Part shown: piece after piece, positions 2,492 to 43,453 of the stretch
How the letters are laid out: each line of letters begins with the position of its first letter
Position numbering within the stretch: position 1 is the stretch's first letter
Assembly (NCBI GenBank): GCA_963662625.1
Contig: OY759726.1
Coordinates: 960,001-1,024,000, forward strand
Reading direction: 5' to 3'
DNA from: Nitrosopumilus sp.
GTDB lineage: Archaea; Thermoproteota; Nitrososphaeria; Nitrososphaerales; Nitrosopumilaceae
DNA: 64,000 bases
Program-made: the position numbers and the translations under genes
Notes under the pieces: model-generated
What the model saw: the letters and a program-made list of their open reading frames with translations, nothing else
What the model was told of the DNA's origin: nothing
Database searches by the model: none

Positions 2492-3534
2492 CCGCAGGAT
2501 CCCCGCGCCCGGCCGCGACGCGGGGCGTGCCCCGGAACCGATCTCCCGACAGAGGGGCCGGCCGCGCGGGACGCCGGGTCCGGAACCGCGCCCAAAGGCG
2601 CAGCCGCGACCTGAATAATCGATAAATACCTTCCGTGCGTTATATACCGGTAGGATGGGCATAGACGTCTTTGACAACTCCCTGGTGGAGCCGATAGGAA
2701 TCAGGATGATCAGGCCGTCCCAATCCCCGGTAAGGTATGCGGATCCGGCTGACTCGGCCGAACTGGCCAACCTTAAATCGAGCATAAAGGAGCACGGCCT
2801 GCTCCAACCCATAGTGGTGCGCCCCCTGGAGCACGGGTTTGAGATCGTCGCGGGCCACAGGCGGTTTGCGGCCTGCAAATCCCTCCGGTGGAGGTTCATC
2901 CCATGCAAGATATGCGAGTTCTCAGACAAGCAGGCCTATGAAATCCAGCTCACTGAAAACCTGCAGCGAAAGACGATGGATCCGATAGAGGAGGCGGAGG
3001 CCTACCAAAAATACGTCGTCGACTTTGGCTGGGGAGGGGTAAGCGAACTGGGAAGGAAGATCGGCAAGAGCGAGGAGTACGTCTCGCACAGGATGCAGCT
3101 CCTAAAGCTTCCCGAGGACGTCCGCGTGAAGGTCGCCGGCAACGCCATCGGCATAAGCCAGGCCTTGGAGATCACAACCGCCGATCCCTCGATCAAGGAG
3201 GAACTGGCAAACGACATCGCGTGCAACAAACTGACAGTCAGGCAAATCAGGCAGATAAAACACAGGCTGGCCAAATCCCGGAAAAATGACTTTGACGCGT
3301 ACGCAAAGTCCAAGGGGGATCAGGTCATCCGAAAAAGCAGCCTGGCCCTGAGGATCGCGCTGTCCAGGATCGACGACCTGGTGGAGGACGCGCACCGGGC
3401 AAACGCAAAGGAGCGAACCGAGCTGGTCCAGTTTCTGCTGGGACTCCGCAGGAGGGTCCATTCCATGATCGACGACACGCTCAAGTACAAAAAAGAGCGG
3501 TCAAAAAACCGGTAGGCGCGCGGGGATCCTGCGG
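2492..3534. repeat. 17-bp perfect inverted repeat flanking the ParB-like gene (2492-2508 and 3518-3534)
   Basis: CCGCAGGATCCCCGCGC and its reverse complement GCGCGGGGATCCTGCGG. Confidence 0.7.
2655..3515 (+). CDS. ParB/Spo0J family protein
   Basis: SIKEHGLLQPIVVR, EIVAGHRRFAA, ENLQR, HTH segment ELGRKIGKSEEYVSH. Confidence 0.9.
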   Translation: MGIDVFDNSLVEPIGIRMIRPSQSPVRYADPADSAELANLKSSIKEHGLLQPIVVRPLEHGFEIVAGHRRFAACKSLRWRFIPCKICEFSDKQAYEIQLTENLQRKTMDPIEEAEAYQKYVVDFGWGGVSELGRKIGKSEEYVSHRMQLLKLPEDVRVKVAGNAIGISQALEITTADPSIKEELANDIACNKLTVRQIRQIKHRLAKSRKNDFDAYAKSKGDQVIRKSSLALRIALSRIDDLVEDAHRANAKERTELVQFLLGLRRRVHSMIDDTLKYKKERSKNR

Positions 3535-6528: not shown

Positions 6529-7452
6529 CTAGCTCTTCCTGATTCCAGAAAACGGGGCCCCGATGCAAGCCTGCCTCACGTGCCCGACAACCCCGAGGAC
6601 CGCGTCCTTCACGTCTTCCGTCCGGCTTCCGAGGATCCTGACCAGCAGCCCGTTGCCGTCCCTCATGACGCTTGCCCCGCCGGAGACCCCGCCTCCCGAA
6701 ACCACGCCCCTGATCCTGCCGTGCAGATCCCGGACGTTCTTCCCTTCGGTCAGGATGTAGACGGATCCGGCCACGGAACTGTCCCCTAGAACTCCGAACG
6801 ACGCCAGTCTCTGTTTCTTCGGCTCCAGGTTCGCGGCGTCGGTAAACCTCAGGATTTTCTCCTGGTTGGTGGCCCTGGTCTTGACGTAGCACGCGTCGTA
6901 CTCGAACGCCTCCCCCATGGCCACCCTGCCCGGCGTGATGATCTCCGAATAAACCATGGTGGCCGAGTCATGCACGCTGAGGTTCGTCTCCTGGTAGAAC
7001 CTAGATCCCCCGTAAGGAATGATCTGGTCCGGGACGAATTCCAGGTACGCCCCCTCCTCCAGCGTCACGTTGACCGCCTGCACCGCGCTGTTGGAGTCCA
7101 TGCCGTAGATCCTGGTGGCCCCCTGCGTCGTGACATGCGCCATCGAGCCCCTCTTCATCGTGATGTCGATCCTGTACCTGTCCCCCTGCAAGATTCCCCC
7201 CGACGCGGAGACGATGTAGAGGTGGGCCATGCCAGGACAGCGCTCGTCGCAGTACAGCGCCCTCTGCGCATGCAGCGGCACCTCCGAAAACTGCTCCCCT
7301 ATGAAGGTCTTCCCGCCCCCGTCTCTCTGAAAAACCAGCCGGAGCGCGCCCTTCTTCCCGGCCTTTCCCACGGCAAGCTGCCTCACGTCAGAGTCAAAGG
7401 CCCTGATGCCCTCTGGAATGCGGGCGGACGCGGAAAAATCCCCGCCGGTCAT
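6529..7452 (-). CDS. ureD: Urease accessory protein UreD
   Basis: SGGILQGDRY, TTQGATRIY, LEFVPDQIIPY, TPGRVAMGEAF. Confidence 0.92.
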   Translation of the reverse strand: MTGGDFSASARIPEGIRAFDSDVRQLAVGKAGKKGALRLVFQRDGGGKTFIGEQFSEVPLHAQRALYCDERCPGMAHLYIVSASGGILQGDRYRIDITMKRGSMAHVTTQGATRIYGMDSNSAVQAVNVTLEEGAYLEFVPDQIIPYGGSRFYQETNLSVHDSATMVYSEIITPGRVAMGEAFEYDACYVKTRATNQEKILRFTDAANLEPKKQRLASFGVLGDSSVAGSVYILTEGKNVRDLHGRIRGVVSGGGVSGGASVMRDGNGLLVRILGSRTEDVKDAVLGVVGHVRQACIGAPFSGIRKS

Positions 7453-8108
7453 GTCTTTGCGCCTGGCAAGGCCGCCTTGGGCGGCGCGTCAAACAGCACG
7501 TCACGGATGATGTGCCGCGCCACCTCGTCGATTCCCTCGCCGGTCATGCAATTTATGAACAGGAACGGCCTGTCCTTCCTCAGCCGCACGGCGTCGTTTT
7601 TCATGACTTCCAGGTCCGCCCCCACGAGCGGGGCCAGGTCGATCTTGTTTATGACCAGGAGGTCGCAGCTTTCGATGCCCAGCCCGCCCTTCCTTGGGTA
7701 CTTGTCCCCGCCCGCGACGTCGATGATGTACACGAAATAGTCGGCAAGGAGCGGGCTGAACGTGGTCGTGATGTTGTCCCCGCCGCTCTCTATGACTATG
7801 AGGTCCAGCTCGGGGTGCCCCCCCTCCATCTCCTCTATCACGGCCATGTTCATCGACGGATCCTCCCTTATGGCGGTATGGGGGCAGCCGCCCGTGGCGA
7901 GGCCCACCACCAGATCCTCGGGCAGCAGCCCGCGGTCCGTGGCCAGGTTCTGCCTCATCCTGTCCGCGTCCTCCTTGGAGATCACGTCGTTTGATATGAT
8001 GCTGACGGCGTACCTTTTTTTTGCGAGGGCCGGGACCACCCGCTCTATCAGCATGCTCTTACCCGATCCCACCGGACCGCCAATGCCCACCCTTGGAATC
8101 CTGGCCAT
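7449..8108 (-). CDS. ureG: Urease accessory GTPase UreG
   Basis: ATG 8108 MARIPRVGIGGPVGSGKS, TGGCPHTAIRED, ESGGDN, INKIDL; the longer ORF start in the track overlaps ureF. Confidence 0.95.
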   Translation of the reverse strand: MARIPRVGIGGPVGSGKSMLIERVVPALAKKRYAVSIISNDVISKEDADRMRQNLATDRGLLPEDLVVGLATGGCPHTAIREDPSMNMAVIEEMEGGHPELDLIVIESGGDNITTTFSPLLADYFVYIIDVAGGDKYPRKGGLGIESCDLLVINKIDLAPLVGADLEVMKNDAVRLRKDRPFLFINCMTGEGIDEVARHIIRDVLFDAPPKAALPGAKT

Positions 8109-8113
8109 CCCTC

Positions 8114-8815
8114 TCACGTAATGAACATCTTGGAGTCCATCTCCTCGTGCTGCATCTGGCTGATCTCTATCTGCGGCGAAAACTGCCACATGTCCTCGAC
8201 CGACTTCGCGGCGCTTTCCCTGGCAATCCTCAGCATAAGCGGCTTCAGGCCGTGAATCACCCCCTGGCCCTCGAAATGCTGGATCATCCCAAGGCGCAGC
8301 GCCGCGCCCACGGTGCTCACGACAAAGCCGTACATCAGCATGAGCAGGGATCTCTCCCCGGTGATCCCCAGCGCGTTGCAGCACGCTGCGAGAGACACCG
8401 GGTAGACTCCCGTGACGCCCCCCTCCTGCATCTCGCCGTAGTACCAGTTCAGGACCCTGTCCCCCCCGTGAAACTCCCTGACGCACCTTGCCATCTGGAT
8501 TCCTGACCTGGAGGACGCATCCCTGGCCTCCCTGACCGCCCTGGTGGAGCTGCACGCCGCATCTACCTCCCTGATCTTCTCCAAGTCCCCCGACACGCAG
8601 TGCGCGTGCGCGTTTGCCAGCGCCACGCAGTCGCAGGGGCCGAGCTGTTGCTCCAGGCAAACCCTGTTGAACTCGGCCAGTTCGGGCGCCGTGGTGACCT
8701 TCCCGTCCATGAACAGGCTCTCCAGGCCGCTGGACGTCGCAAACAGCCCGGTCGGAAAAAACGAGTCGGACAGCTGCATCATGTCCAGTTCCCACCCGGG
8801 GCTACCCGTGCCCAT
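8114..8815 (-). CDS. ureF: Urease accessory protein UreF
   Basis: QLSDSFFPTGLFATSSGLE, AALRLG, QMQHEEMDSKMFIT; start placed at ATG 8815. Confidence 0.92.
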   Translation of the reverse strand: MGTGSPGWELDMMQLSDSFFPTGLFATSSGLESLFMDGKVTTAPELAEFNRVCLEQQLGPCDCVALANAHAHCVSGDLEKIREVDAACSSTRAVREARDASSRSGIQMARCVREFHGGDRVLNWYYGEMQEGGVTGVYPVSLAACCNALGITGERSLLMLMYGFVVSTVGAALRLGMIQHFEGQGVIHGLKPLMLRIARESAAKSVEDMWQFSPQIEISQMQHEEMDSKMFIT

Positions 8816-9287
8816 GCACATCCGCTCCCGCATGCGGGGTGAAAACCACCTCCTCCGTGGACAGCTCCACGTGGCCGGCAATCTCTGAGAACAGCCTGCC
8901 AAAAACCTCCAGCTCGGTTCTCGCCTGGATCGGAAAGGACACCACGTCGCCCCTTGCCGAAAACGGCCTGTGCCTGTTCCCGATGACGTGCCCGACCAGC
9001 ACCATGTGGGACGCCTCGCTGGTCTTCAGTCTGACCGAAATGACCTTCTCCGGGAGCTGCTCTACCACTATGGTCCTCCCGCCGCCCGACAGCACGTCGC
9101 CGTGGCGCAGGGACTGGCCCGCCTCCAGGGCGAGGGCCACGTCGGTCCCCCTGTCGGTCCGCCGCCGCATCCTCTTCTTCCCAAGATCCGACCTGGGCAC
9201 CCGGAGCCGCTCGTAGTCCCCCTCCTCGGGGGGAGCGTACCCCTTGTCATGGAAAACGTTTCCGGAAATCGACGTGACTGTCAGCAC
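8802..9287 (-). CDS. ureE: Urease accessory nickel chaperone UreE
   Basis: [30 protein letters not shown], short His tail [10 protein letters not shown]; GTG start at 9287 inferred. Confidence 0.9.
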
Positions 9288-9369
9288 GGTAACCGGTGCA
9301 CCGATCTGGGTTATATCTTGTTGGTCTTTCCCTTTAATTATTAAATACGTCGCCTGGGTAACAGATCCA
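9288..9369. promoter_or_regulatory. Divergent promoter region between ureEFGD and ureABC
   Basis: AT-rich TATA-like boxes on both strands (TTATATC near 9311; TTTAATTATTAAATA near 9333-9347). Confidence 0.55.
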
Positions 9370-9672
9370 ATGATGCTTACCCCGCGGGAGATGGACAAGC
9401 TGCACATTTTTCTGGCCGCGCAGCTTGCCCGGCGGAGGATGGGCCGGGGGCTGAAGCTGAACCACCCGGAGGCGGTGGCGATAATCGCGGACTACATTCT
9501 GGAGGGCGCGCGGGACGGAAGGTCGGTGCCCGACCTCATGAGCTCGGGAAAGCGGGTCCTGACAAAGGACGACGTGCTGCCCGAGGTGCCGGAACTGATC
9601 CACTCGATACAGGTAGAGGCCACGTTCGACGATGGGACGAAGCTCGTGACCGTGCACGACCCCATAGTGTGA
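9370..9672 (+). CDS. ureA: Urease gamma subunit
   Basis: [40 protein letters not shown]. Confidence 0.96.
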
Positions 9673-9677
9673 GGCGC

Positions 9678-10046
9678 ATGAAGCCGGGCGAATACATGAT
9701 ATCCGAAGGCGAGATCATCGCCCACCGGGGCAAGGCGACGGTCTCGCTGCAGGTGACCAACACGGGCGACAGGCCGGTGCAGGTCGGATCCCACACGCAT
9801 TTCTTCGAGGTGAACAAGGCGCTTTCCTTCCAGAGGGAGAGGGCATACGGGTACCACCTCAACATCCCGGCAGGCACCTCGGTGAGGTTCGAGCCTGGAG
9901 ATTCCCGGGGAGTGGAGCTGACAGAATACGGCGGGCGGAGGGCCGTCTTTGGCTTCAGCGGCCTGGTCAACGGGAGCCTGGACGAGAAAAGGGGCGACGC
10001 GATCTGCAAGGCCAGGGAGAGGGGATTCAAGGGGGTCTCTGAGTGA
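9678..10046 (+). CDS. ureB: Urease beta subunit
   Basis: [38 protein letters not shown]. Confidence 0.96.
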
Positions 10047-11755
10047 CGCTGGCCATCCCTAGGAGCAGGTACGTGGATCTCTTCGGCCCGACCGCGGGCG
10101 ACCGGGTGAGGCTCGGAGACACAGACCTGATCGTCGAGGTAGAAAGGGACCTGATCAAGTACGGCGACGAGACCGTCTTCGGCGGCGGAAAGAGCGCCCG
10201 GGACGGCATGGGCCAGGCAAGCGGCGTCACCAGGGAGGGATCGCTGGATCTGGTGATAACAAACGCGATAATCATGGATCCCGTGCTGGGGATAGTAAAG
10301 GGCGACATCGGGATCAAGGACGGAAGGATAGCCGGGATCGGCAATTCGGGCAACCCCAACATCATGGACGGCGTCGACCTGGTCATCTCGTCCAACACCG
10401 AGATCATCGCGGGGGAGCACACCATCTGCACCCCGGGGACCATAGACACCCACATCCATTTCATCTCCCCGCAGCAGGCCGTCGAGGCGATCTGCAACGG
10501 GACGACCACCATGATCGGGGGCGGCACCGGGCCGGCCGACGGGACAAACGCGACGACCTGCACGCCCGGGGCCTGGAACATCCACAGGATGATCGAGGCG
10601 GCCGAGGAGTTCCCCCTCAACTTTGGCTTCCTGTGCAAGGGAAACGATTCCCTGGAACCGGCCCTGCTGGAACAGGTCGAGGCGGGCGCATGCGGCCTGA
10701 AACTGCACGAGGACTGGGGATCCACCCCCGCGGCGATCGACTCTGCCCTGCGCGTGGCCGAAAAGACCGACACCCAGGTGGCAATCCACACCGACACGCT
10801 GAACGAGTGCGGCTTTGTAGACGACACGATCGAGGCGATCGCCGGCAGGACCATACACACCTACCACACGGAGGGCGCGGGCGGCGGGCACGCGCCGGAC
10901 ATCATGAAGGTGGTCGCAGAGAGCAACGTGCTCCCGTCCTCCACGAACCCCACCAGGCCGTTCACGGTAAACACCCTGGCAGAGCACCTTGACATGATGA
11001 TGGTGTGCCACCACCTCAACCCTTCGGTGCCCGAGGACGTATCGTTTGCCGAATCGAGGATCCGGGGCGAAACCATAGCGGCAGAGGACGTCCTGCATGA
11101 CATCGGCGCCATAAGCATGATGTCCTCTGACAGCCAGGCCATGGGGCGCGTGGGCGAGGTCACGACCAGAAACTGGCAGACTGCCGACAAAATGAAGAAG
11201 ATGACCGGGGCTCTGCCCGGGGAGGCCGGCAGCAACGACAACCTGAGGGTCAAGCGGTACCTGGCAAAAATCACCATAAACCCGGCGATAACCCACGGGA
11301 TATCGGAGTATGTCGGGTCCATGGAGCCCGGAAAACTTGCGGACATCGTGGTCTGGACCCCGCAGTTCTTCGGCATAAGGCCCAAGCTCGTCATCAAGGG
11401 CGGGCTCATCGCGTATTCCCTGATGGGCGATCCAAACGCGTCTATACCCACCACGGAGCCCGTATACTACAGGCCGATGTTTGGCGCGATGGGAAACGCA
11501 AAACACTCCACCTCCCTGACGTTTACCTCGGGGCTGGCACTCGAGAAGGGCCTGGAGTCCGCGCTGAACGTAAGGAAGAGGCTGGTCCCGGTCAAGGGCT
11601 GCCGCACCATAGGCAAGAAGGACATGGTGCACAACGACCTGATGCCAAACGTGGAGATCAACCCCGAGACGTACGAGGTGCGGGTCGACGGAAACACGGC
11701 AACCGTAAACCCGTCAGACAGGCTTTCGCTCTCCAGGCTCTACAGCCTGTACTGA
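10043..11755 (+). CDS. ureC: Urease alpha (catalytic) subunit
   Basis: [54 protein letters not shown]. Confidence 0.98.
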
Positions 11756-15169: not shown

Positions 15170-15919
15170 TCACAGGAAGCCGGGGAAGCCGGGAACGACG
15201 ATGCCGGCGATTACGTCCAGCCCTATGGCCCCGGTGACGGCGCCGGCCAGAACCCGCACCCACTTCCCCATCCCCGCAAACCTGCCCGAAATGAGGAACG
15301 TGGAGGACAGCGCCCCGGCCACCGCCATCATGCCGATCACCGAGCCCAGCCCGAACACCAGGACGAACGCCAGCACCTCCGAGATGTCGCTCAGCGCCAC
15401 CACGCCCACCGCGATCAGGCTCCCGCTCCCGGCCAGGCCGTTGAGGCACCCTATTAGGTAGGACTTGTGGGTGTGCGAGTGGCCCCTGCCGTGCTCGTGC
15501 GGGTGCGTGTGGACGATGCCGCCCTCGTGCGCGTGGGGATGCTCGTGTCGCACCCGGAATGCCTTCCTTCTGCCGCACATGGATATTCCCAGGGCGACCA
15601 GCACCGCCCCGACCGCAATCTCAAGCCCGTCAAACGCCATGGCCGGGATGCCCAGCGCAAACACGAACACCAGGGCGCTGACGAGGAGGATCGTGGACAT
15701 GTGGCCAAACCCCCAGAACGCGCCCAAGAGGGAGTTCCTGAGGGCCGCCGCCCAGGTTCCCCCGAAGGGCCCGGCCGGATCTTTCTTCCCGCCGCCCCGC
15801 ACCTGCGTCAGCATGGCAGCCACGTGATCCGGCTCGAAGGCATGCAGCAAGCCCACCAAAAACCCCGCAGACAGCAGCAGGCCGCCTCCCAGCTGCGCGA
15901 GCGACTCCCCCACTACCAT
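15170..15919 (-). CDS. UreH/NiCoT-type nickel transporter
   Basis: GLLHAFEPDHVAA, WGFGH, His-rich loop HEHPHAHEGGIVHTHPHEHGRGHSHTH, GLAGSG; ATG 15919. Confidence 0.85.
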   Translation of the reverse strand: MVVGESLAQLGGGLLLSAGFLVGLLHAFEPDHVAAMLTQVRGGGKKDPAGPFGGTWAAALRNSLLGAFWGFGHMSTILLVSALVFVFALGIPAMAFDGLEIAVGAVLVALGISMCGRRKAFRVRHEHPHAHEGGIVHTHPHEHGRGHSHTHKSYLIGCLNGLAGSGSLIAVGVVALSDISEVLAFVLVFGLGSVIGMMAVAGALSSTFLISGRFAGMGKWVRVLAGAVTGAIGLDVIAGIVVPGFPGFL

Positions 15920-16308
15920 GCGCCGCCTCCGTCCAGCGGGCTTTCGCCGTGGGTGGCAGGTATGGGGCGGCTCAGGGAGACGGTGAACCTCTCGCCTGCC
16001 ATGACAACCTCGAAGTCCAGCCCCTGCAGCATCTCCGGGACCCCGATCATGACCTGCCCGGGCGACAGGATCGACGCCGCCTCCCTCCCGATCCGCCCCC
16101 CGTCCTTTCCCTCCCTGAGCGACGAGACGACGAACGCAGAGAACAGCAGCAGCGCGTCGTTGACGTTGATCCTCTGCCGCCGGCCCAGCATGCATCCCAC
16201 CCTATCGCAGGCCGCAAGGAAGGCCGCGTCGTCGGGCCCGTCGAACTGGAAGTTCTTCGTGTACGGCATGACGTCGGGCTCGCCCCTGACGGTGATCGTG
16301 ATCCGCAT
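15913..16308 (-). CDS. Divergent urease gamma-subunit-like protein (131 aa)
   Basis: RINVNDALLLFSAFVVSSLREGK...ILSPGQVMIGVPEML...TVSLSRPI aligns by eye with Ure[24 protein letters not shown]...[15 protein letters not shown]...LVTVHDPI; ATG overlaps the upstream stop (TGATG). Confidence 0.75.
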   Translation of the reverse strand: MRITITVRGEPDVMPYTKNFQFDGPDDAAFLAACDRVGCMLGRRQRINVNDALLLFSAFVVSSLREGKDGGRIGREAASILSPGQVMIGVPEMLQGLDFEVVMAGERFTVSLSRPIPATHGESPLDGGGAW

Positions 16309-17423
16309 CAGTCTCTCTTTGGGATTTCCGCCCTCGGGCCGCCGAAACTGTACGTGTGCCCGGTGCCCCTGTAGTCGTGCGGCCTGACCGGGCTCCCGCC
16401 GTCCAGCCCCCGTTTCGTGAGGGACAGCCCCGCCAGCAGCTCCACGACGAGCCTTTGCCCCAGCCCCGACGTTATGCCCCCGTTGTACGAGCTGTTGTCG
16501 CTTACGTCGTAAGCCGGAGAAACCTCGACGAGGTCCATCGCGAACCTGTCCGGGTCGAACGACTTGGACAGCAGCCGGATCATCCTGATTCCCTCCCTGG
16601 AAGTGAGGCCGTTGGGCTCCGGCTCCCCGGTACCGGGCGCGTATGCCGGGTCGAAGGAGTCTATGTCCCAGCTCAGGTACACCGCGTCGGTGCCGTCGTT
16701 TGCCCTGTCCGCGATCTCCTTTGCGATGTAGTCGATCCCCAGCTCCTCCACGTCCAGCATGGTGAACCACTGGAAGTCCTGGTCTGCCATCCACTTGTAC
16801 AGGTCCGGCCCGGGCCAGTACCCCCTAGGCCCCACGAGGGAGTAGTTCTTCCCCTTCAGGCAGCCCATCTCCATTATCCGCCGGATGTGCGCCCCGTGGT
16901 CGTACTTGTAGCCGGTCAGGCCCTGCGGGGCGCAGTCCGCGTGGGTGTCGAAATGGATCATCCCTATGTTCTTGTATTTCTTGGCAAAAGCCCGCACGTT
17001 GGCGTACGTGATGGAGTGGTCGCCCCCCAGCATGACCGGGATCCCGTCCTGCTCGAGGACCTCCTTGACCTTCACCGTCATCCTCTTGTGCGACTCTATC
17101 ACGTCCCCGGGGGATACCTGCACGTCCCCGTAGTCCACCGTCTTGAATGTGCCAAACGGGTCTGCCCCCGTCTCTATGTTGAACCTCTCGTACGGGGGGG
17201 ACGGGATGGTGGATGCCGCCCTGATCGCGCGCGGCCCGTACCTTGCGCCGGGGCGGATCGTGGTCCCAAAGTCGAACGGCTCTCCGATTATCGCAACGTC
17301 GGGCTTGACCTCCTTGAGTTCCTCGCTAGACTTTACCCAGGGAAGGTGGAGAAAGGTGTTGATTCCGACAAATGGCGCCACGTCGGCACCCCTGTAGTCG
17401 TCGCCGTAGAACTCCATCCCCAT
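16308..17423 (-). CDS. Ureohydrolase (agmatinase/guanidinase family), substrate unknown
   Basis: RPGARYGPRAIR, GGDHS, DTHAD, DID, APGTG, VEVSP binuclear metal-site motifs. Confidence 0.92.
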   Translation of the reverse strand: MGMEFYGDDYRGADVAPFVGINTFLHLPWVKSSEELKEVKPDVAIIGEPFDFGTTIRPGARYGPRAIRAASTIPSPPYERFNIETGADPFGTFKTVDYGDVQVSPGDVIESHKRMTVKVKEVLEQDGIPVMLGGDHSITYANVRAFAKKYKNIGMIHFDTHADCAPQGLTGYKYDHGAHIRRIMEMGCLKGKNYSLVGPRGYWPGPDLYKWMADQDFQWFTMLDVEELGIDYIAKEIADRANDGTDAVYLSWDIDSFDPAYAPGTGEPEPNGLTSREGIRMIRLLSKSFDPDRFAMDLVEVSPAYDVSDNSSYNGGITSGLGQRLVVELLAGLSLTKRGLDGGSPVRPHDYRGTGHTYSFGGPRAEIPKRD

Positions 17424-17543: not shown

Positions 17544-18767
17544 GTGTTTTCCAAGGCCAGGAACGAGTGGAGCATGATCAACAAGGGGCTGTACTGGGAG
17601 CGCTACGGCGAGTTCGGCAGGGCGGCCCGGTGTTTCGGCAAGGCGCTGAGGATAGACCCGCACAACGTCGTGGCAAACCTGCACATGGGAACGTCCCTGT
17701 ACCGCGCAAGCAGGTTCGCCGACGCGCTGGCGTGCTTTGACCGGATCCTCGCCGACGATCCAAAAAACATCGACGCCTCGCACAACAGGGGGCTCTGCCT
17801 GGAAAAGCTGGGCAGGTACCCGGAGGCCATCTCGTCCTTCCGCCGCGCGCTCGAGGCGGATCCCGGCTGCCTCGACTCAAAGACGTACATGGCGGCATGC
17901 GAGAGCGGCCTGGGCAGGCACGGCGACGCCATCGCCCTGCTGGACGACGTGCTGGGAAAGGATCCGAGGAACTCCGCGGCCCTGTACAACAAAAGCACGG
18001 TCCTCGGGCGAATGGGCAGGCAGTCCGAGTCCATATTCCACCTGAACCTGGCGCTGGGGGAGGACTCGAGGCAGTCGGGGATCTGCCATGGCAAGGGCAG
18101 GCTGCTCGCCTCCAGGGGGCGCCACGAGGAGGCGATAAAGTGGTACTCCAAGGCCCTCGAGTACGACCCAAAGAACCTGGACGCGCTGGTCGCGAAGGGC
18201 TGGACGCTGGATCTGGCCGGGTTTTCCCCAAAGGACGTCTTTGCGTTCTTTGACAGGGCGCTCGAGATCGACCCGGAGTTCACCGAAGCCTGGCTGAACA
18301 AGGGCTTCGTCCTGGACCGGACGGGGCTGTTCAAGAAGGCAGTCGGGTGCTTCGAGAGCGTCCTGGAATACGACCCCCGGAACGTCCGGGCGCTGTACAG
18401 CAAGGGGGTGTCGCTGTTCTCCCTCAAGCAGCACAGCGCGGCGATCTTTTTCTGCGGCGAGGCCATACGGCTCGATCCGTCCAACGTCAAGGCGCTGTGC
18501 AGCATGGTGTGGGTCCTGGAACACAAAAAAAACTACGCCGACGCCCTAAAGTACTGCGACAGGGCGCTCGAGATCGACCCGGACTACGCCTACGCGGTCA
18601 GCTACAGGGGAAAGATCCTGCTGTCCATGAAAAGGTATGACGAGGCCCTGGAATGCTACGACACGGCCCTGAAGCTGGATCCCAAAAACCAGACTGCGAT
18701 CTACCACAAGGAAAAGGTGCTGGAACAGATGAGGAAGAGGGACCGGGGGAGCCCCGCCAAAACCTGA
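17544..18767 (+). CDS. Tetratricopeptide repeat protein
   Basis: About ten 34-aa units with KG..L....Y.EA...F.RAL..DP pattern. Confidence 0.9.
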   Translation: MFSKARNEWSMINKGLYWERYGEFGRAARCFGKALRIDPHNVVANLHMGTSLYRASRFADALACFDRILADDPKNIDASHNRGLCLEKLGRYPEAISSFRRALEADPGCLDSKTYMAACESGLGRHGDAIALLDDVLGKDPRNSAALYNKSTVLGRMGRQSESIFHLNLALGEDSRQSGICHGKGRLLASRGRHEEAIKWYSKALEYDPKNLDALVAKGWTLDLAGFSPKDVFAFFDRALEIDPEFTEAWLNKGFVLDRTGLFKKAVGCFESVLEYDPRNVRALYSKGVSLFSLKQHSAAIFFCGEAIRLDPSNVKALCSMVWVLEHKKNYADALKYCDRALEIDPDYAYAVSYRGKILLSMKRYDEALECYDTALKLDPKNQTAIYHKEKVLEQMRKRDRGSPAKT

Positions 18768-20094: not shown

Positions 20095-21660
20095 GTGGCC
20101 GCCTTTGGGGATTTTGGAATTGCGATAGCAGCCTTCATCGTGCTGACTCTGGTAGTCGGCATACTGACGGGCAAGCTGGTGAAGCAGAGCGGAAGGCGCC
20201 TCATCGTGGCGGGAAAGAGCCTGCCGCTTGCGATGGTCGGCACGATGCTGGCCGCCCAGGCAGTCGACGGAAACTCCACGCTCGGAAACGTGGCGCTAGT
20301 GTTCGAATTCGGGTTCTGGGCCGGGGCCGTGGTGCCAATCGGCCTGGGGGTCTGCCTGCTGATCACCGCAGCGTTCTACGCCAAACCGCTCAACAAGATG
20401 ATGATGATCACCCTGCCCGACTTTTACTTTAGGAGGTACGGGAACGGCGCCGAAGGGATCTCCGGCGTGCTGATGATAATAAGCTTCATAGTGCTGGTTG
20501 CCGGCAACCTGGCGGCCAGCGGGTTCATCCTGGAGACGGTGTTTGGGATCGACTATTTCTGGGGAATCCTGATCTCCGCGCTGGTGGTGGTGGCGTACAC
20601 CGTGGCGGGGGGGCTTTTTGCGTCTGCCTATACCAACCTGTTCCAGGTCTACCTCGCCATCGGGGCTTTCTGGGTGGGGTTCCTGTTCTTCGCGGGCGGG
20701 TTCTCCGGCGCCCCGTGGGACGTGATATACAACAGCGCCCCGCCGGAATACCTGGACCTGTCGGGCCTGTACGACATCGGCAACGGGGCGCTGATCAACT
20801 GGGGCGCGATACTTGCCCTGGGACTCGGGGACATCATTGCGCTCGACTTTATGGAAAGGGTCTTCGCGGCAAAGAACCCCAAGACCGCCAGGAGGGGGGC
20901 GTTCATGGGCGGCGCGCTGACGCTGTTCACGGTGGTCCCCACCAGCATGCTGGGAATAGTGGCCCTGTACTACCTCCCGGCAGACACGCTTCCTGACTTC
21001 GCCCTGCCCCTGCTGGCCACCGAACACCTCCCGTTCGCCATAGGCGCCGCCATACTGATGGGGGTCATAGGGGCGTCCATGTCCACCGCCAGCGGGGGCC
21101 TGCTGGCCATATCGAGCGTCGTGTCCAGAAACCTGGTCACCAGGATCATACGTAGGCGCTGGCTGGGAAAGCCAGGCACCGACGACAGGAAGCTGCTCTT
21201 CATGACGCGAGTAGTCATAGTGCCGATGATGGTGGCCGGGACGACCCTGGGCTACTTTGTTCCGGCGCCCGGCGTTTACCTGGTTTTGGCGTTTGACATC
21301 ATGTTCGCGGGGGCGTTTGCCCCCCTGACCTTCGGCCTGTTTTGGAAAAAGGCGAACATGCCGGCGGCGATAGCGTCGCTGCTGGTGGGATCGTCCCTGA
21401 GGCTGTCGTTCTTTTTCACCATGCCGGAGGAATGGGCGGGGCTGGACACGATGATCCCTCCGGTCGTCTCCTTCGTCGTATTCATTGGGGTGGCCCTCGC
21501 CACCCAGGGCAGGTACCCCGGAAAGGCGCGGCACGACGTCAGGGACTACGTCCCGCCGGAGGAGGACATCATCATCGGCGAGGACCTCAAGCACTTCAAG
21601 GGCGATTTTATGAGCTCCGGGTTCGACGTGAGCGCTGACCGGCCAGAAGGCAAGACATGA
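20095..21660 (+). CDS. Sodium:solute symporter (SSS family, non-Dur3; choline/proline-transporter-like)
   Basis: About 13 TM helices, VAGKSLP, ITLPDFYFRRYG, YTVAGGL, RVFAAK, ASMSTASG. Confidence 0.88.
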   Translation: MAAFGDFGIAIAAFIVLTLVVGILTGKLVKQSGRRLIVAGKSLPLAMVGTMLAAQAVDGNSTLGNVALVFEFGFWAGAVVPIGLGVCLLITAAFYAKPLNKMMMITLPDFYFRRYGNGAEGISGVLMIISFIVLVAGNLAASGFILETVFGIDYFWGILISALVVVAYTVAGGLFASAYTNLFQVYLAIGAFWVGFLFFAGGFSGAPWDVIYNSAPPEYLDLSGLYDIGNGALINWGAILALGLGDIIALDFMERVFAAKNPKTARRGAFMGGALTLFTVVPTSMLGIVALYYLPADTLPDFALPLLATEHLPFAIGAAILMGVIGASMSTASGGLLAISSVVSRNLVTRIIRRRWLGKPGTDDRKLLFMTRVVIVPMMVAGTTLGYFVPAPGVYLVLAFDIMFAGAFAPLTFGLFWKKANMPAAIASLLVGSSLRLSFFFTMPEEWAGLDTMIPPVVSFVVFIGVALATQGRYPGKARHDVRDYVPPEEDIIIGEDLKHFKGDFMSSGFDVSADRPEGKT

Positions 21661-21709: not shown

Positions 21710-21725
21710 TACTTAAAAATTTCAA
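21710..21725 (+). promoter_or_regulatory. Promoter motif TACTTAAAAATTTCAA upstream of the chaperonin paralog
   Basis: Exact 16-bp match to 20048-20063; TTAAAAA lies about 28 nt before the ATG. Confidence 0.5.
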
Positions 21726-21740: not shown

Positions 21741-23426
21741 ATGAAATACCCCGATCTGATCAACCCGGAAATCTCGCGGATCGGCGTCCAAGAGTCACAG
21801 ATGTATAACATAGTCGCCGGGCAGCTGGTGACCGAAATCGTCAAGACGTCATTTGGCCCGCGAGGAATGGAGAAGGTGTACATCGACATCCTCGGAGAGG
21901 CCACGGTCACCAAGCACGGCGGGGCCTTCCTGAGGAAGATAGACGTCGACCACCCTGCAGCAAAGACGGTGGTCGAGGCCGTCAACGCCGTGGACACGCA
22001 CGTGGGCGACGGCACCGTCACAGCGGCGGTGCTGATCGGGGCTCTGCTCAAGCGGTCCCGGGCCCTGCTGGGGATGGGGGTCCCGACGGCCGCAGTCATC
22101 CGGGGCTTTGAGGTGGGCCTGGACTTTGCACTGGAGGCCCTGGAGGGGATGAAGATCAAGTCGGACCACGCAGACAGGCGGATGATGGCGAGGGTGCTTG
22201 ACTCCTGCCTGGAAGGAAAGGCGATCTTCGACTCCCTGCACGAAGACTCGCAAATCAGCAAGATGATAATCGACGCCGTATGCAGCGTGACTGACTTTGC
22301 CAAACGGAAGACGGACGTGGACAGCATCAAGATCGAGGAAAAACAGGGCAACTCGTCAGACATCCGGCTCGTGATGGGCACCGTGGTGGACAAGACCATA
22401 GACAGCCCCGCAATGCCAGTCGCGCTGGAGAACGCCAGGATCCTCCTGCTAAACGACCCGCTTGAGACCATGCGCACGAAGACGGAGTCGGAGATAGAGG
22501 TGTCCTCCCCCGGCCAGATGGGACAATTCCTGAAGCAGGAGGGCGCCGACGTCCTCTCCCTGGCCAAGAAGATCGTGGACTCTGGCGCAAAGGTGGTCGT
22601 GTCCCGAAAGGGAATCGGCGACCTCGCGCAGGAATACCTCGCAAGGGCCGGGATAATCTCCGTCCGCAGGGCAAAATACAACGATCTCTGGTGGCTGGAA
22701 AAGTCCACCGGGGCCAAGACGTGCATGGATGTCGAGAGGATCTCCGACGGCGAGCTGGGCTTTGCCTCGTCGGTGTATGAGCAGGACGTCGGGGGGGACC
22801 GGATGCTGTTCGTTGAGGCGAGGCAGCCCAGGTCCGTGACGCTCCTGCTGCGCTCCGTCTCCAAAAGCTACCTGGACGAATTCCACCGCACCGCAAAAAA
22901 CGGGATCTTTGCGCTGAGGAACTTCATCGAGGATCCCCACATCGTCTTCGGGGGCGGCGCGTGCGAGGCGGCGTTGGCGCAGAAGGTCAGGGAGCGCTCC
23001 GGGTTCGTGGAGGGGAGGGAGCAACTTGCGGTGCGGGGGCTTGCCGACGCGCTAGAAGAGATACCGCTGACCCTGGCCAGGAACGTGGGGATGAACGCGC
23101 TGGACGTGCTGCCGCAGCTAAGGGCAAGGGCGGCAGGGGCCAGGAATGCGCGGTGGTACGGGATCGACTCGCGTGCGAGGAGGGTCGGGGACATGCGTTC
23201 CGCAGGAATAGTCGACACCGCGGCAGTCAAGGAGCAGGTGTTGAAGACCGCAGTCGAGGTGACCAACATGATCCTGAACGTGGACGACGTCTTCGTGAAG
23301 GACCTGATCGACAACACGCACTGCCACATAGACGGGACGGTCCATGCCCACAAGGATCCCGGAAGGAACCACAACCACTGGGAACAGGAGGGGCTGGAGC
23401 AGCGCCAGATGCACCACTACTACTGA
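21741..23426 (+). CDS. Divergent group II chaperonin (thermosome-like) with His/Cys-rich C-terminal tail
   Basis: FGPRGMEK, VGDGTVTA, GGGACE, ALEEIPLTLARN, ILNVDD; tail NTHCHIDGTVHAHKDPGRNHNHWEQEGLEQRQMHHYY. Confidence 0.88.
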   Translation: MKYPDLINPEISRIGVQESQMYNIVAGQLVTEIVKTSFGPRGMEKVYIDILGEATVTKHGGAFLRKIDVDHPAAKTVVEAVNAVDTHVGDGTVTAAVLIGALLKRSRALLGMGVPTAAVIRGFEVGLDFALEALEGMKIKSDHADRRMMARVLDSCLEGKAIFDSLHEDSQISKMIIDAVCSVTDFAKRKTDVDSIKIEEKQGNSSDIRLVMGTVVDKTIDSPAMPVALENARILLLNDPLETMRTKTESEIEVSSPGQMGQFLKQEGADVLSLAKKIVDSGAKVVVSRKGIGDLAQEYLARAGIISVRRAKYNDLWWLEKSTGAKTCMDVERISDGELGFASSVYEQDVGGDRMLFVEARQPRSVTLLLRSVSKSYLDEFHRTAKNGIFALRNFIEDPHIVFGGGACEAALAQKVRERSGFVEGREQLAVRGLADALEEIPLTLARNVGMNALDVLPQLRARAAGARNARWYGIDSRARRVGDMRSAGIVDTAAVKEQVLKTAVEVTNMILNVDDVFVKDLIDNTHCHIDGTVHAHKDPGRNHNHWEQEGLEQRQMHHYY

Positions 23427-39935: not shown

Positions 39936-40109
39936 TTAAAACCCGGGCCTTTTGGGGATATAGTCTGCGGCCATGTTGATCGCCTGATCCTTCATGATCT
40001 CCAGGTAGGCGTCATAGCCTGCCTCGAAGTTGCAGTGGGGGCACTTTACCCTAGTGATCTCGTCGTCCAGAACCGCCACCCGCTCGCATTCGGGGCATTT
40101 TGCGTCCAT
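39936..40109 (-). CDS. Small Zn-ribbon protein (57 aa; not in ORF track)
   Basis: MDAKCPECERVAVLDDEITRVKCPHCNFEAGYDAYLEIMK...; TATA-like box upstream. Confidence 0.8.
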   Translation of the reverse strand: MDAKCPECERVAVLDDEITRVKCPHCNFEAGYDAYLEIMKDQAINMAADYIPKRPGF

Positions 40110-40160
40110 GCCGCTATTATGCGGTCAAGGTATTTAATCATAGTTGACATATGGGAATTG

Positions 40161-40237
40161 GCGGAGTTAGTCTAGATCGGTATGACGTCAGCTTCCCAAG
40201 CTGAAGGCCGCGGGTTCAAATCCCGCACTCCGCACCA
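40161..40237 (+). tRNA. tRNA-Gly(CCC) with encoded CCA
   Basis: Acceptor GCGGAGT/ACTCCGC, anticodon arm TCAGC-TTCCCAA-GCTGA, T arm GGTTCAAATCC. Confidence 0.95.
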
Positions 40238-40904
40238 CATGTAGGGCCGGCCTTCCCGGCAGTGCCGCGAGGATCCGACGCCGCCCCACGTATTTGGCTG
40301 CGGGGCGTTGCCAGTCCCCCCACCGCCGGCGCATTAGCGAGGGATTTCTGGGAAGACTGGGGGTCGCATTTCCAGTGGGGGAAAGCGGCCCAACCCGCAA
40401 CAGGATCAGGCACGGCACGTCCAACGTCCTGCACGACAGCACGGGGGAGATGCAGGAGCCGGTACGTGCCATGCTCGGCAACGGGGAGGTCAAGACCGTC
40501 AAGATGGTCCAATATTTAACACCGTAACTACGGCCAGCCGCCCGGCTCCCACGGGGCGCGCCTGATCGCGGACGGGGCGTGCGCGTCGCGGGACAACGTG
40601 CGGAGGTGCCGCGGCATGGGCGTGGGGCCGACCGTCCCGGCCAGGGTAGCGCCCGCCGCCAGGTGCAAGGGCGCCGGCGGCGCGTGGGGCGGGGCGGCGT
40701 CTGGCCGCCGGGGCCGCCTTTCCAACGATTCCCTACCGTGGGATCCCCGGGCTGTGCACATGCCGCCCCACGCACTGGACTCCTGACGTGCCCGACGATG
40801 TTCTGGGACGGCCTGCGCCCGCGGTTTCCGGCGTCTTCACGCCCAAAAGGCATGCCGCAAACCGATATAAATTGCCATATAACGGGGGCGCGTAACCCCT
40901 TCCA

Positions 40905-41894
40905 ATGACTGGAAAAAACGCGAAAACGATGTTGTTTGCCACTTTGATCGCTGCGATGAGTCTGCCGTTTGCTGCAATGCCAGTTTCTTCAGCAGAGTCT
41001 ACAACACCAAATACGGATGTGCTAATAGAGCGGGAATGGGCTACTAGTGAAAAAGAGCGAAACGCACATGATGCTTTTATTGCGTATGTTAAGCACGACA
41101 TGCCCGATAATGGTTGGAATAAAGATATTCTAAAACAAAATATCAAACTCTACAACTTGGAGACAGAGATAGGACGTGATGTTGATGGGTATGAACTAGT
41201 GGCATTAGTTGCTCAGAAAAATAAGATTTTTGGTTCTTACTTCCCGACTCATGCCGAGAAAAAACTCCATGATTGGGCGCTATCGCAGTATAAGATTCCA
41301 ACAACTCTGGAAGGAATTCAAGAACGATTCAGAGAGATTGTAGGAAATGGTAACGAAGACAGATCCCTCGCCATAGTGAACATTCTTAACCATATGGCGA
41401 ATCATGGAAATGTAGGCGGTGTGGTTCATGCATCAGATCCTAAATTCTGGAGCAATGTGGGGGTCACGTCATTATGTAATTACATAACTGTCTGTGGGGA
41501 TATGATAAGCGACGAAGTAAATCCAAGTGGACAGTTACGATTAGTAAATTCTGCCCACAAACATACAGCAACTGCTTATGTCGTATACGACCCATGCGAG
41601 ACCACCAACGATACATGTACTGTATTTACATACAATCATGGCAGTGGCCCACAAGAACAAACTTTCAATTCCCCCGATCATGTACAAGATGAGGCAGTAT
41701 ACGCTTCACTGACAAACTATTCCAATACGGCCAATAGCGTCATTGTTGAAACTAAAATCGTTGCCCCGTTGGCTGGAGGCTCGGTGGCTGGATTCGATAA
41801 TGATGGGTATGTGATTAAGACTGGCAACATGAACAACCCAAATGCATATGCAGAAAGTTACATCGAGATTAAATTTACTAGCAATGCTTGGTAA
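40905..41894 (+). CDS. Exported hypothetical protein (AT-rich)
   Basis: Signal peptide KTMLFATLIAAMSLPFAAM; 329 aa open frame. Confidence 0.75.
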   Translation: MTGKNAKTMLFATLIAAMSLPFAAMPVSSAESTTPNTDVLIEREWATSEKERNAHDAFIAYVKHDMPDNGWNKDILKQNIKLYNLETEIGRDVDGYELVALVAQKNKIFGSYFPTHAEKKLHDWALSQYKIPTTLEGIQERFREIVGNGNEDRSLAIVNILNHMANHGNVGGVVHASDPKFWSNVGVTSLCNYITVCGDMISDEVNPSGQLRLVNSAHKHTATAYVVYDPCETTNDTCTVFTYNHGSGPQEQTFNSPDHVQDEAVYASLTNYSNTANSVIVETKIVAPLAGGSVAGFDNDGYVIKTGNMNNPNAYAESYIEIKFTSNAW

Positions 41895-42060
41895 AGTCCA
41901 CATCTTTTTTTTGGTCATAATGCTATAGGAGCGGTGTCCTATCTTCTCCCATGCATGCATCCATCCATCGCCCAAGCAGGATGCGCTAGAATATATGGCA
42001 CCCGTTATCCTGTTTCAGTACTTGCGAACACATATTTTGATATGTAACTAGTGTAATGCC

Positions 42061-42450
42061 ATGATATTTTCCTTTAACAAAAAAAACGCCGTGGCCCTCG
42101 GGACGATATTGCTTTCAACATGCCTTGTCCTTGCATATGCATCTTACATACAACCTGCAACCGAGCCAAACATGCGAATTACTCCCGGCGCCAAAGCCCT
42201 TTCGTATGAAGAGGTACGCACATTTCTAATGACAGATCCAGGATCACAGCTAATAGTGCTGCCCCCCAACAATCCCGACTCTCTTGTGGTGCAGTCAAGC
42301 GGCCACTCTGCGGATTCCGGTTACGTCCTCAAGTCATATCAAAACGGAACAAGAGTATACATCGAGAAATCCCACGATGGGACCATACTAAAAGAGCTCA
42401 AATTCCATGACAAGCAAAGCAAGGAGGTCATAGTCTTCATAAAAGAGTAG
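42061..42450 (+). CDS. Membrane-anchored hypothetical protein (AT-rich)
   Basis: N-terminal TM AVALGTILLSTCLVLAYA. Confidence 0.7.
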   Translation: MIFSFNKKNAVALGTILLSTCLVLAYASYIQPATEPNMRITPGAKALSYEEVRTFLMTDPGSQLIVLPPNNPDSLVVQSSGHSADSGYVLKSYQNGTRVYIEKSHDGTILKELKFHDKQSKEVIVFIKE

Positions 42451-42516
42451 AGCCTCGATTCCAAGTCACTGCAATTTGCGTTACGCTGTAAGTCATGTTG
42501 GCTTTCTTTTTTTAGT

Positions 42517-43200
42517 TTGAAAATTCTTGTTCAAGTACGCGTGCAATTAGTTAGGGGCAAAACAACCCTCATCGTATTTTTGTCCGCAATCATAATATTT
42601 GGGACGTCGTCTCAAATCACTCTTGCTGAAATAAGCCAAGGCCGCGGCGGCTTTCATTCGTTAAAAGAAATTTCAGACAACATAGAGCGGGGGGATCCCA
42701 TCACTTTCCCTAATCCACAACATGTACTTGCTTTGCGACCAAACTCTAACTGGGTCTGCGTTTATTTTGAAACAGCAAGCCATCTGAACTGGGACATGGT
42801 ATTGTATTCAGAACCAGACTCGCCACAAATCACCACTTCTATTTTTTATGGGAACAAGCATCACTACGTCACATACCAGACAAACAAGGAGGCAGTTGGC
42901 TCTGTTAAGCGTAATTCAGACGCAGGTCATGACAGTGACGGCTACATTTTGGAAATATCAATGGTGCCAACGGCACAAGGTGATTTGACAGTGACGGTTC
43001 CCTCCATCGAGTCTGGCATGTTTGAAGATTACTGCGTAAAATTCAATAAAATACCAAACTCTCATTTCTTTATGTATTTGGCTGATGGCCACGAAACGCC
43101 ACATAAAGAAATGAACGTAAACCCAGTTTTCACCACCGTAAAATTACATTACGATCCGGGTACAGAATTAGTTGGGATGGCTCTTGCTTGTCGGATTTAA
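42517..43200 (+). CDS. Exported hypothetical protein with thaumarchaeal surface-protein-like segments
   Basis: N-terminal TM; SLKE...HVLALRPN..VCV...TA motif and LTVTVP...YLADG segment resemble Nitrosopumilaceae exported proteins; start uncertain. Confidence 0.6.
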   Translation: MKILVQVRVQLVRGKTTLIVFLSAIIIFGTSSQITLAEISQGRGGFHSLKEISDNIERGDPITFPNPQHVLALRPNSNWVCVYFETASHLNWDMVLYSEPDSPQITTSIFYGNKHHYVTYQTNKEAVGSVKRNSDAGHDSDGYILEISMVPTAQGDLTVTVPSIESGMFEDYCVKFNKIPNSHFFMYLADGHETPHKEMNVNPVFTTVKLHYDPGTELVGMALACRI

Positions 43201-43453
43201 AGCGCAAGCAACAGTACCCTAAAGTTTGGCGGCGCTTGGAGTGATTCCATTGGGATTGCGTGCGCCCCGATCAAGGAAATCAGGCGATCCAAATTTCGAA
43301 AGTACTGCAGGATCCGCAACTGCAAACAAGCAGATTGGGAGTGGCGTAACGGAAGGCAGGTTGGCAGGCAACGCGGAGCCGCAGAAGGTAGCCTTTGGGG
43401 CCGGACGTCCGCAAGAGGACGGTGAGGGTGTCCATGATGGACAGGGACGAGAT

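Follow-up and report, generated by a model that had tools for sequence, protein, structure and literature searches.

The closest described relatives of the gene considered here are the canonical thermosome alpha and beta subunits, as known from Methanococcus maripaludis (Mm-cpn), Thermococcus KS-1 and Thermoplasma. The gene lies at positions 21,741 to 23,426 of a stretch of 64,000 nucleotides, called the window throughout, from Nitrosopumilus sp. (assembly GCA_963662625.1, contig OY759726.1, positions 960,001 to 1,024,000 of the forward strand). Its product, the tailed subunit, is like the canonical subunits in fold, domain order and built-in lid, and it shares with them the Mg-binding GDGT loop, Lys160 and two of the three pocket glycines. 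Unlike them it has His59 and Asn387, a C-terminal tail which contains 7-8 His, a place in a long-stemmed clade and a patchy distribution linked to one enzyme, an arginase-family ureohydrolase whose gene lies 4.3 kb upstream in the window.

A urease-linked Hsp60 of these archaea has already been published. The available text of Abby et al. 2018 (PMC5797428) notes that urease loci in Nitrosocaldus and in Nitrososphaerales contain a homolog of Hsp60 and suggests that it stabilises urease; it reports the homolog missing from Nitrosopumilales, whereas the tailed gene was found here in 12 of the 41 genomes of the window's family. The Nitrososphaerales homolog occupies the same urease-locus position as the tailed members of the Nitrososphaeraceae type, and the two are equated by position alone. 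The chaperonin of a Nitrosocaldus-like urease locus (L023; loci of relatives are numbered with L and genomes with G) is different, being of a tail-less lineage outside the tailed clade. The parts available of Zhong et al. 2020 (PMC7265257) describe an extra thermosome beside symporter and urease genes in one hadal metagenome-assembled genome, and those of PMC13674081 a thermosome transcript which rises with the urease genes in Nitrososphaera viennensis, where it is not stated which thermosome is meant. No description of the His tail, the catalytic substitutions, a link between thermosome and nickel or a link to a ureohydrolase was found in the literature, the supplements of which may hold more.

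His-rich elements are known on chaperonins of bacteria. Helicobacter pylori HspA is a GroES with a His/Cys-rich, nickel-binding C-terminal domain and is linked to urease and hydrogenase. It places a His-rich nickel-binding tail on the chaperonin system of an organism dependent on nickel enzymes, yet it is a co-chaperonin lid and not a subunit of the cage. Dedicated nickel delivery to an arginase-family hydrolase, as proposed below, has a parallel in GhaA and GhaB, the HypA/HypB-like nickel-loading proteins of the Synechocystis guanidinase GdmH, which belong to protein families unrelated to the tailed chaperonin. Nickel-loading chaperones are mentioned in the available text of PMC11410670, which describes guanidinases as nickel enzymes and the nickel-loading route in comammox Nitrospira as unknown. 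In mycobacterial GroEL1 (Cpn60.1) the Gly/Met tail of the paralog is also replaced by a His-rich tail, discussed in the part available of PMC5904260 as a metal-related specialisation. GroEL1, however, belongs to group I and its run of His is short, whereas the tailed subunit is of group II and has a fixed 40-residue motif and a defined co-occurring enzyme.

A third thermosome subunit with a conserved histidine-rich tail

The chaperonin gene and its tail are located as follows.

21741..23426, plus strand: tailed thermosome paralog, a 561-residue group II chaperonin subunit (open reading frame, PF00118, PDB alignment, AlphaFold2 model, Foldseek)
23295..23423, plus strand: C-terminal tail, residues 519-561, with the motif T-H-x-H-x-D-G-T-x-H-x-H ... 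H-[DN]-H-[FW] ... G-x-x-Q-R ... H-H-Y-Y (conservation in homologs)

The source genome is a single contig of 1.86 Mb with a GC content of 0.63. It contains archaeal amoA (389.5 bits), so the host is an ammonia-oxidizing archaeon and not a methanogen-like euryarchaeon, and the source names of the homologs place it near Nitrosopumilus and identify the second tail-bearing family as Nitrososphaeraceae. Three chaperonin genes are present, with PF00118 scores of 629, 623 and 456 bits, the last being that of the tailed gene. The two canonical paralogs end in a Gly/Met tail (L001) and a short Gly/Pro tail.

The tailed protein matches PF00118 (Cpn60_TCP1) with 455.5 bits over residues 30-519, against a cut-off of 34.3, and NCBIfam NF041082 (thermosome_alpha) with 468.8 bits, against a cut-off of 450; its 454.9 bits with TIGR02339 (thermosome_arch) fall under the cut-off of 671.1. 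Solved archaeal group II chaperonins in the PDB align to it with E-values of 3e-107 and 35-37% identity. The AlphaFold2 model, computed from a 72-row alignment, has a mean predicted local distance difference test score (pLDDT) of 86.7 and a predicted template modelling score of 0.83, and its body is confident. A helix at residues 257-281 lies in the lid region, where the alignment to the solved chaperonins has no gap, and Foldseek superposes the model on the closed Methanococcus (Mm-cpn) and Thermococcus (KS-1) chains with template modelling scores, by target length, of 0.94-0.96. The nucleotide pocket keeps Asp90, Gly91, Thr92, Lys160, Gly404 and Gly406; Gly405 is variable in the lineage, leaving two of the three glycines of the GGG motif in the window protein. 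Profile scores, a three-domain fold with a built-in helical lid and the nucleotide pocket all place the protein among the group II chaperonins. No homology to UreD, UreE, UreF or UreG was found, the Pfam scan giving PF00118 only. The tailed gene encodes a third thermosome subunit that is real, specialised and conserved.

The Gly/Met-rich C-terminus of a canonical thermosome subunit is absent and an 8-His tail stands in its place. A preliminary description of the window, made from the letters alone, had described a replacement of 37 residues with 8 His and 1 Cys, and translation of the open reading frame gives just this for the final 37 residues (23313-23423); the whole protein contains 15 His. 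The expectation that the tail would be conserved in orthologs also proved correct, for it is almost unchanged in 119 of the 119 best database homologs, which are 62-79% identical to the window protein. Across 44 tailed sequences of the two families His527, His529, His535, His537, His544, His558, Gly551, Gln554 and Arg555 are invariant and Thr526 (98%), Asp531 (93%), His546 (93%) and Tyr561 (91%) nearly so. The tail had been called His/Cys-rich. Of this the His part is conserved, with six invariant residues, and the Cys is not, being replaced in the Nitrososphaeraceae type by Thr (13 of 14) or Ala (1 of 14).

Conservation within the families is higher for the tail than for the body (0.85 against 0.62 in one, 0.75 against 0.57 in the other). 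In 10 related loci, with a tail-DNA GC content of 0.32-0.59 (window 0.60), 198 of 376 identical tail residues are encoded by a codon other than the window's, which indicates a constraint on the protein. Judged by these patterns the tail is a conserved motif and not a region of low complexity. A profile built from the tails finds the window protein with an E-value of 2.6e-27, and the tail alone gave no match among PDB sequences at E-values up to 10. In the AlphaFold2 model the pLDDT of the tail is 28-48, with values below 50 for residues 523-530 and 534-561, and the tail is thus predicted to be flexible in the free monomer.

Three relatives, all of one subclade, have an additional insertion of 21-44 residues, rich in His and Asp, which follows residue 337 (window numbering) in an apical-domain loop. 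These chaperonins (L039:6904-8667, L040:5810-7657 and L041:6640-8388) contain 28-32 His in total, against 15 in the window protein.

The tail occurs in genomes with an arginase-family ureohydrolase

The proposed client of the tailed subunit and its neighbours were located in the window as follows.

16308..17423, minus strand: arginase-family ureohydrolase, 371 residues (PF00491, 276 bits)
15913..16308, minus strand: small UreA-like (urease-gamma-like) gene (tblastn with the UreA-like proteins of L015 and L016, 39% identity, E-value 1e-21)
15170..15919, minus strand: NicO/NiCoT-like membrane protein with an H-x4-D-H motif and a His-rich loop (tblastn to the L015 homolog, E-value 1e-31)
17544..18767, plus strand: TPR-repeat protein, between the ureohydrolase operon and the chaperonin gene (Pfam)
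20095..21660, plus strand: transporter of the sodium:solute symporter family, directly upstream of the chaperonin gene (PF00474)

Two samples were searched, an order-level sample of 201 genomes, to which counts refer unless stated otherwise, and a phylum-wide sample of 401 genomes. One unpublished genome (G108) was negative throughout and counts only towards the denominators of the order-level sample. A search with the 43-residue tail alone gave exactly one match per genome in 32 of the 201 genomes: besides those of the window's family, 20 of the 40 genomes of the second family were positive and none of 120 in 18 other families. In the phylum-wide sample 17 of 401 genomes were positive, 16 of 57 in the window's family (G000 included), one of two in the second and none of 342 elsewhere. 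Four genomes had seemed tail-negative where insertions split the match; the tail-alone search found them positive.

Orthologs of the ureohydrolase are present in 37 of the 201 genomes, with scores of at least 650 bits and identities of 74-100%; the next best match scores 146.9 bits. All 32 tail-positive genomes contain such an ortholog, and the tail occurs in none of the 164 genomes without one. In all eight genera of mixed state the tail and the enzyme are concordant genome by genome. The phylum-wide sample adds four tail-positive genomes, all with the ureohydrolase, 0.2-7 kb from the chaperonin gene. Orthologs of the upstream transporter (at least 516 bits) occur in 36 genomes, which are the ureohydrolase-positive set minus G142. 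A module made up of the transporter, the ureohydrolase, the UreA-like and nickel-permease-like proteins and the His-tailed chaperonin is found in 36-37 of the 201 genomes, about a sixth.

Strong ureC matches were found in 63 of the 201 genomes. The ureohydrolase is lacking in 27 of these and the tail is absent from all 27, so urease alone does not predict the tail. Of the tail-positive genomes 31 have ureC. The 32nd, G155, seemed to have a tail and no urease, which was rejected as an assembly artefact because its contig ends just past ureEFGD and ureA. It had been predicted that the tailed paralog would occur only in genomes with ureohydrolase and urease genes, and the 32 of 201 positive genomes agree with this; the alternative, that the paralog is universal in the family and independent of urease, is rejected by the genome distribution of the tail and ureC. 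Tail-positive lineages are marine, from soil and of high GC content, and the distribution follows one enzyme and not habitat.

The ureohydrolase is compared with solved relatives by bit score: 179.7 with the guanidinobutyrase 3nio, 169.1 with the Synechocystis guanidinase GdmH (7esr/7oi1), 165.7 with the Nitrospira inopinata guanidinase (9fek), 121.6 with metformin hydrolase and 119.5 with agmatinase. The enzyme is annotated in the field as an agmatinase. It is 74-96% identical across three families and is nearer to guanidinobutyrase and the guanidinases than to agmatinase. In metagenomes it is abundant, with 90%-identity clusters of 1326 and 2951 member sequences.

The ureohydrolase, UreA-like and NicO/NiCoT-like genes form an operon of overlapping genes (15170-17423, minus strand). 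The ATG of the UreA-like gene overlaps the ureohydrolase stop by 1 base, and its relatives match Pfam Urease_gamma; the NicO/NiCoT-like gene overlaps the UreA-like gene by 7 nt. The latter is the sole NicO-like signal in the genome, and its homologs in L013, L016 and L018 match Pfam NicO with 66-75 bits, with weak matches elsewhere. Its H-x4-D-H motif we take to be the NiCoT signature; a literature search for the motif gave nothing. The pair of transporter and chaperonin genes is kept in L004-L007 and L038, and a symporter clustered with an 'agmatinase' is noted in the available text of PMC11131427. TPR genes also occur in L007, L009, L011, L012, L038, L040, L042 and L043 by Pfam match, and L046 has a 412-residue frame at the corresponding place. 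An Rfam scan found no riboswitch near the module.

Ureohydrolases with their own histidine-rich extension

Five genomes have the ureohydrolase without the tailed chaperonin. One is G142, considered below. The other four belong to a third family and contain only canonical chaperonins and no third chaperonin. In each of them the ureohydrolase is extended at its own C-terminus by about 47 His-rich residues, among them 11-13 His spaced as H-x-H. No such extension is present in the 11 aligned ureohydrolases from the two tail-bearing families, and metagenome clusters of 402-438 residues (P0302-P0307) have it. Whether in cis, on the enzyme, or in trans, on the chaperonin, a His-rich element goes with the ureohydrolase in 36 of the 37 genomes. 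The four self-tailed enzymes (L042:5893-7143, L043:8521-9834, L044:1-1320 and L045:3927-5213) have a conserved extension with a basic terminus. AlphaFold2 modelling of a self-tailed ureohydrolase from 15 near-identical rows gave a mean pLDDT of 44.6, too low to be informative.

The tailed subunits form one clade

In a quick maximum-likelihood tree of 73 chaperonins, with supports from the Shimodaira-Hasegawa-like approximate likelihood ratio test (SH-aLRT), all 26 tailed rows are set apart by a single branch with support 100 and a stem length of 0.59. The canonical chaperonins of these archaea, 16 rows, are likewise grouped by a separate branch of support 100, and together with three further representatives form a group of support 99 apart from the tailed clade. 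The window's type is a subclade of 12 tree rows (SH-aLRT 100). The window protein belongs to the tailed clade by tree position, by His382 and by the tail motif with its six invariant His. When 1.84 billion representative proteins were searched, the matches that extend into the tail numbered only three among the best 150, namely two full-length clusters and a fragment.

The Nitrosocaldus-like chaperonin (L023:6626-8176, minus strand), which lies between ureABC and ureEFGD, is very divergent. It scores 121 bits with the tailed protein, has no His tail, retains both catalytic Asp and falls outside the tailed clade; chaperonins may therefore have joined urease loci twice.

The catalytic aspartates are lost in a lineage-specific manner

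Catalytic positions were counted along the printed residue-by-residue alignment with solved group II chaperonins. Three sets of codons are concerned.

21915..21917, plus strand: codon of His59, first catalytic Asp position, ITNDG to VTKHG (alignment to solved chaperonins)
22008..22019, plus strand: codons of Asp90-Gly-Thr-Val93 in the GDGTVT phosphate loop (alignment)
22884..22901, plus strand: codons of His382-Asn387 (HRTAKN), Asn387 being the second catalytic Asp position (alignment)

The alignment confirmed the substitutions which the preliminary description had read at the three motifs. VTKHG aligns with ITNDG/VTNDG and places His59 opposite Asp60 of the Methanococcus chaperonin. GDGTVT aligns with GDGTTT, with the Mg-binding Asp90 retained and Thr93 changed to Val. 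HRTAKNG aligns with ERAIDDA/ARAVDDA, so that Lys386 and Asn387 stand opposite Asp385 and Asp386; D386A appears in PDB titles as a pre-hydrolysis mutant. The two water-activating Asp of an ATP-hydrolysing subunit (Asp60 and Asp386 of Mm-cpn) are therefore His59 and Asn387 in the window protein, and the subunit of this lineage probably hydrolyses ATP poorly, though a His at position 59 could in principle still serve as the base.

The 72-row alignment comprised 30 sequences of Nitrosopumilaceae type, 14 of Nitrososphaeraceae type and 28 other chaperonins. Asp90 is invariant in all 72. In the Nitrosopumilaceae type position 59 is His in 29 of 30 (Tyr in one) and position 387 is Asn in 29 of 30 (Ser in one), and among the 119 best database homologs position 59 is His in 118 and Tyr in the remaining one. 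In the Nitrososphaeraceae type Asp is found at position 59 in 10 of 14 sequences (26 of 28 in the other chaperonins) and at position 387 in 11 of 14; both Asp are kept in 8 of 14, single losses occur at position 59 (Ser twice, Asn once) and at position 387 (Ser twice), and both are lost in one. His382 is specific to the tailed clade; it is present in 42 of 44 tailed sequences, where 25 of the 28 other chaperonins have Glu or Asp.

In the aligned sequences the double loss is thus lineage-specific, confined to the window's family and not a property of the whole tailed family. The pattern in the Nitrososphaeraceae type indicates that the catalytic pair was lost several times in the tailed paralog. 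With 8 of 14 of these sequences retaining both Asp, the tailed family is defined by its tail and not by a dead ATPase, and the earlier label of an 'ATPase-impaired' subunit fails as a description of the family. The family offers instead a natural series of chaperonin subunits with 0, 1 or 2 catalytic Asp replaced.

In G173 the tailed chaperonin lost both catalytic Asp independently (Asn, Asn). The ureohydrolase match in this genome (G173:C80:7367-8473) contains an in-frame TAG, and the ureohydrolase-chaperonin module may be decaying there (locus L041).

Position of the chaperonin gene relative to urease genes

The urease cluster of the window (6529..11755) is made up as follows.

6529-7452, minus strand: ureD (Pfam, open reading frame list)
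7449-8795, minus strand: ureG/ureF region (Pfam, open reading frame list)
8802-9407, minus strand: ureE (Pfam, open reading frame list)
9370-9672, plus strand: ureA (Pfam, open reading frame list)
9669-10046, plus strand: ureB (Pfam, open reading frame list)
10043-11755, plus strand: ureC (Pfam, open reading frame list, ureC match)

No Pfam match to UreF was reported for frame 7449-8795, where the position of ureF falls, and HypA was not found in the source genome. The setting of the chaperonin gene varies among relatives. In L008, L013, L039 and L041 it closes a same-strand series in which ureE-F-G-D precede it, and in L040 it also comes after ureE-F-G-D but is separated from them by one small opposite-strand open reading frame. 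In many Nitrososphaeraceae loci it is divergent beside ureABC. It adjoins the ureohydrolase operon in L015, L017, L020-L022 and L040. In L018 NikR and then NicO lie directly downstream of the chaperonin gene on the same strand, and in L019 NikR alone.

Proposed function and alternative explanations

The above results tip the balance slightly towards the tailed subunit being a dedicated folding and metal-loading subunit for the ureohydrolase, with nickel the most likely metal. The distribution of tail and enzyme, the His-rich extension of the enzyme in the four other genomes, the selection on the tail, the NicO/NiCoT-like, NikR and ureEFGD genes beside the chaperonin or the ureohydrolase and the nickel-dependent guanidinases among the closest solved relatives of the enzyme all speak for it. 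In group II chaperonins the C-termini come to lie on the cavity floor, and a flexible, conserved tail of 7-8 His would there bind a divalent metal, most likely Ni(II). The subunit would help to fold and metal-load one client, the ureohydrolase, which with 371 residues should fit the chamber and would be co-transcribed with the UreA-like and nickel/cobalt-permease-like proteins. The module would import a guanidino compound, the released urea would pass to urease and ammonia would result. If ATP hydrolysis is weak, the subunit may share rings with the two canonical subunits or act as a holder that does not cycle. The His/Asp insertion added in the L039/L040/L041 subclade may be counted in favour of the proposal as a further gain of His. 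The full form of the proposal, a chaperonin-based metal-insertion chamber whose eight-His tails load nickel into the folding hydrolase, combined with a new route from guanidino compound to urea to ammonia in ammonia-oxidizing archaea, is tentative, and its being correct in every part should be regarded as possible rather than probable.

Several points weigh against a nickel-loading role for the ureohydrolase. Mn is a common metal of arginase-family enzymes, and Zn, Co or Cu are likewise bound by His-rich tails. Being predicted as disordered, the tail gives no structural clue. A profile of the 44 chaperonin tails, searched against all frames of the loci, gave no match to the enzyme extension at E-values up to 10; the two elements are analogous at best, and homology is not claimed. 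All module genes lie in one gene island, and part of the co-occurrence may reflect co-transfer. The arrangement of the chaperonin gene in an operon with urease accessory genes or beside ureABC would also fit a role for urease. G142 has the ureohydrolase without the tail; this genome is in 210 contigs with the enzyme on one of 5.8 kb, and two congeneric genomes are tail-positive, so the absence looks like an assembly gap. Lastly, a screen described in the available text of PMC11410670 found no guanidine-degradation genes in ammonia-oxidizing archaea.

The preliminary description had named urease or the ureohydrolase as the client. The ureohydrolase fits, given the co-occurrence in 32 of 32 genomes, and urease does not, given the 27 tail-less urease-positive genomes. 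A subunit serving urease, by stabilising or assembling UreABC or by supplying nickel to UreE/UreG, is nevertheless what the gene neighbourhoods in many Nitrososphaeraceae loci and in L008, L013, L039 and L041 would suggest, and it agrees with the presence of ureC in 31 of 32 tail-positive genomes, with ureEFGD and ureA at the contig end of G155, and with the stabilisation of urease by a urease-locus Hsp60 proposed in the available text of PMC5797428. The tail-less urease-positive genomes include close relatives in four genera, a third chaperonin is lacking from the four genomes that combine urease with a self-tailed ureohydrolase, and a urease role leaves unexplained why the His-rich element shifted onto the ureohydrolase; service to urease is accordingly held to be unlikely. 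It is similarly improbable that the tail buffers or stores nickel in a general way, as Hpn and the HspA tail do, for cells with two nickel enzymes, without a specific client or cycling. Such a store would account for the occurrence of the tail only where urease and ureohydrolase are both present, for the extra His/Asp-rich insertion gained in one subclade and for the repeated independent losses of Asp, which suggest that ATP-driven folding is dispensable. Against it, the lid, the apical domain, Asp90, Lys160 and the glycines of the nucleotide pocket are conserved, so the chaperonin body is under selection, and the extension in cis on the enzyme in four genomes points to a need local to the enzyme.

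Least probable of the explanations considered is that the tail is a protein-docking motif, for the TPR or the UreA-like protein, or that the subunit is a chaperone for stress or pressure in general. Q-R-x-x-H-H-Y-Y at the very C-terminus does not vary, nor do several positions other than His, and the module repeatedly contains a TPR gene, whose product might by analogy clamp the invariant C-terminal H-H-Y-Y as Hop does EEVD; the invariant positions are however mostly His in H-x-H spacing. Pressure adaptation was suggested, in the part available of PMC7265257, for the extra thermosome beside urease genes, but the tail tracks one enzyme and not habitat, its carriers being marine, from soil and of high GC content.

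Ammonia-oxidizing archaea drive much of global nitrification and have few known substrates, namely ammonia, urea and cyanate. Should the ureohydrolase depend on nickel and split urea off a guanidino compound, these archaea would have a further source of nitrogen and energy, and the conserved metal-binding tail would be a testable answer to how nickel reaches arginase-family hydrolases in nitrifiers. Dedicated loading of the ureohydrolase by the tailed subunit, if true, would give archaea, on the cage subunit itself, an equivalent of the His-rich tails of bacterial GroES and GroEL, and would amount to a new kind of nickel-delivery machinery together with a new substrate pathway for archaeal nitrifiers.

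Other features of the window

The remaining feature near the chaperonin gene lies within the 80-nt gap after the transporter gene.

21711..21722, plus strand: A/T-rich TATA-like box, about 20-30 nt 5' of the ATG (direct sequence reading)

This box may be the promoter element of the chaperonin gene. A ParB-like helix-turn-helix protein (2655-3515, plus strand) and the TPR protein recur beside the module in many relatives. Rfam 5_ureB_sRNA matches positions 10196-10488 on the minus strand, antisense inside ureC, with 42.2 bits (gathering score 40); the match most likely reflects conservation of the urease coding sequence and not an sRNA gene. The region 40000-44500 has a GC content of 0.50-0.53 against about 0.63, its open reading frames gave no Pfam match and a tRNA gene (40161-40234) stands at its start; the region may be an integrated element.

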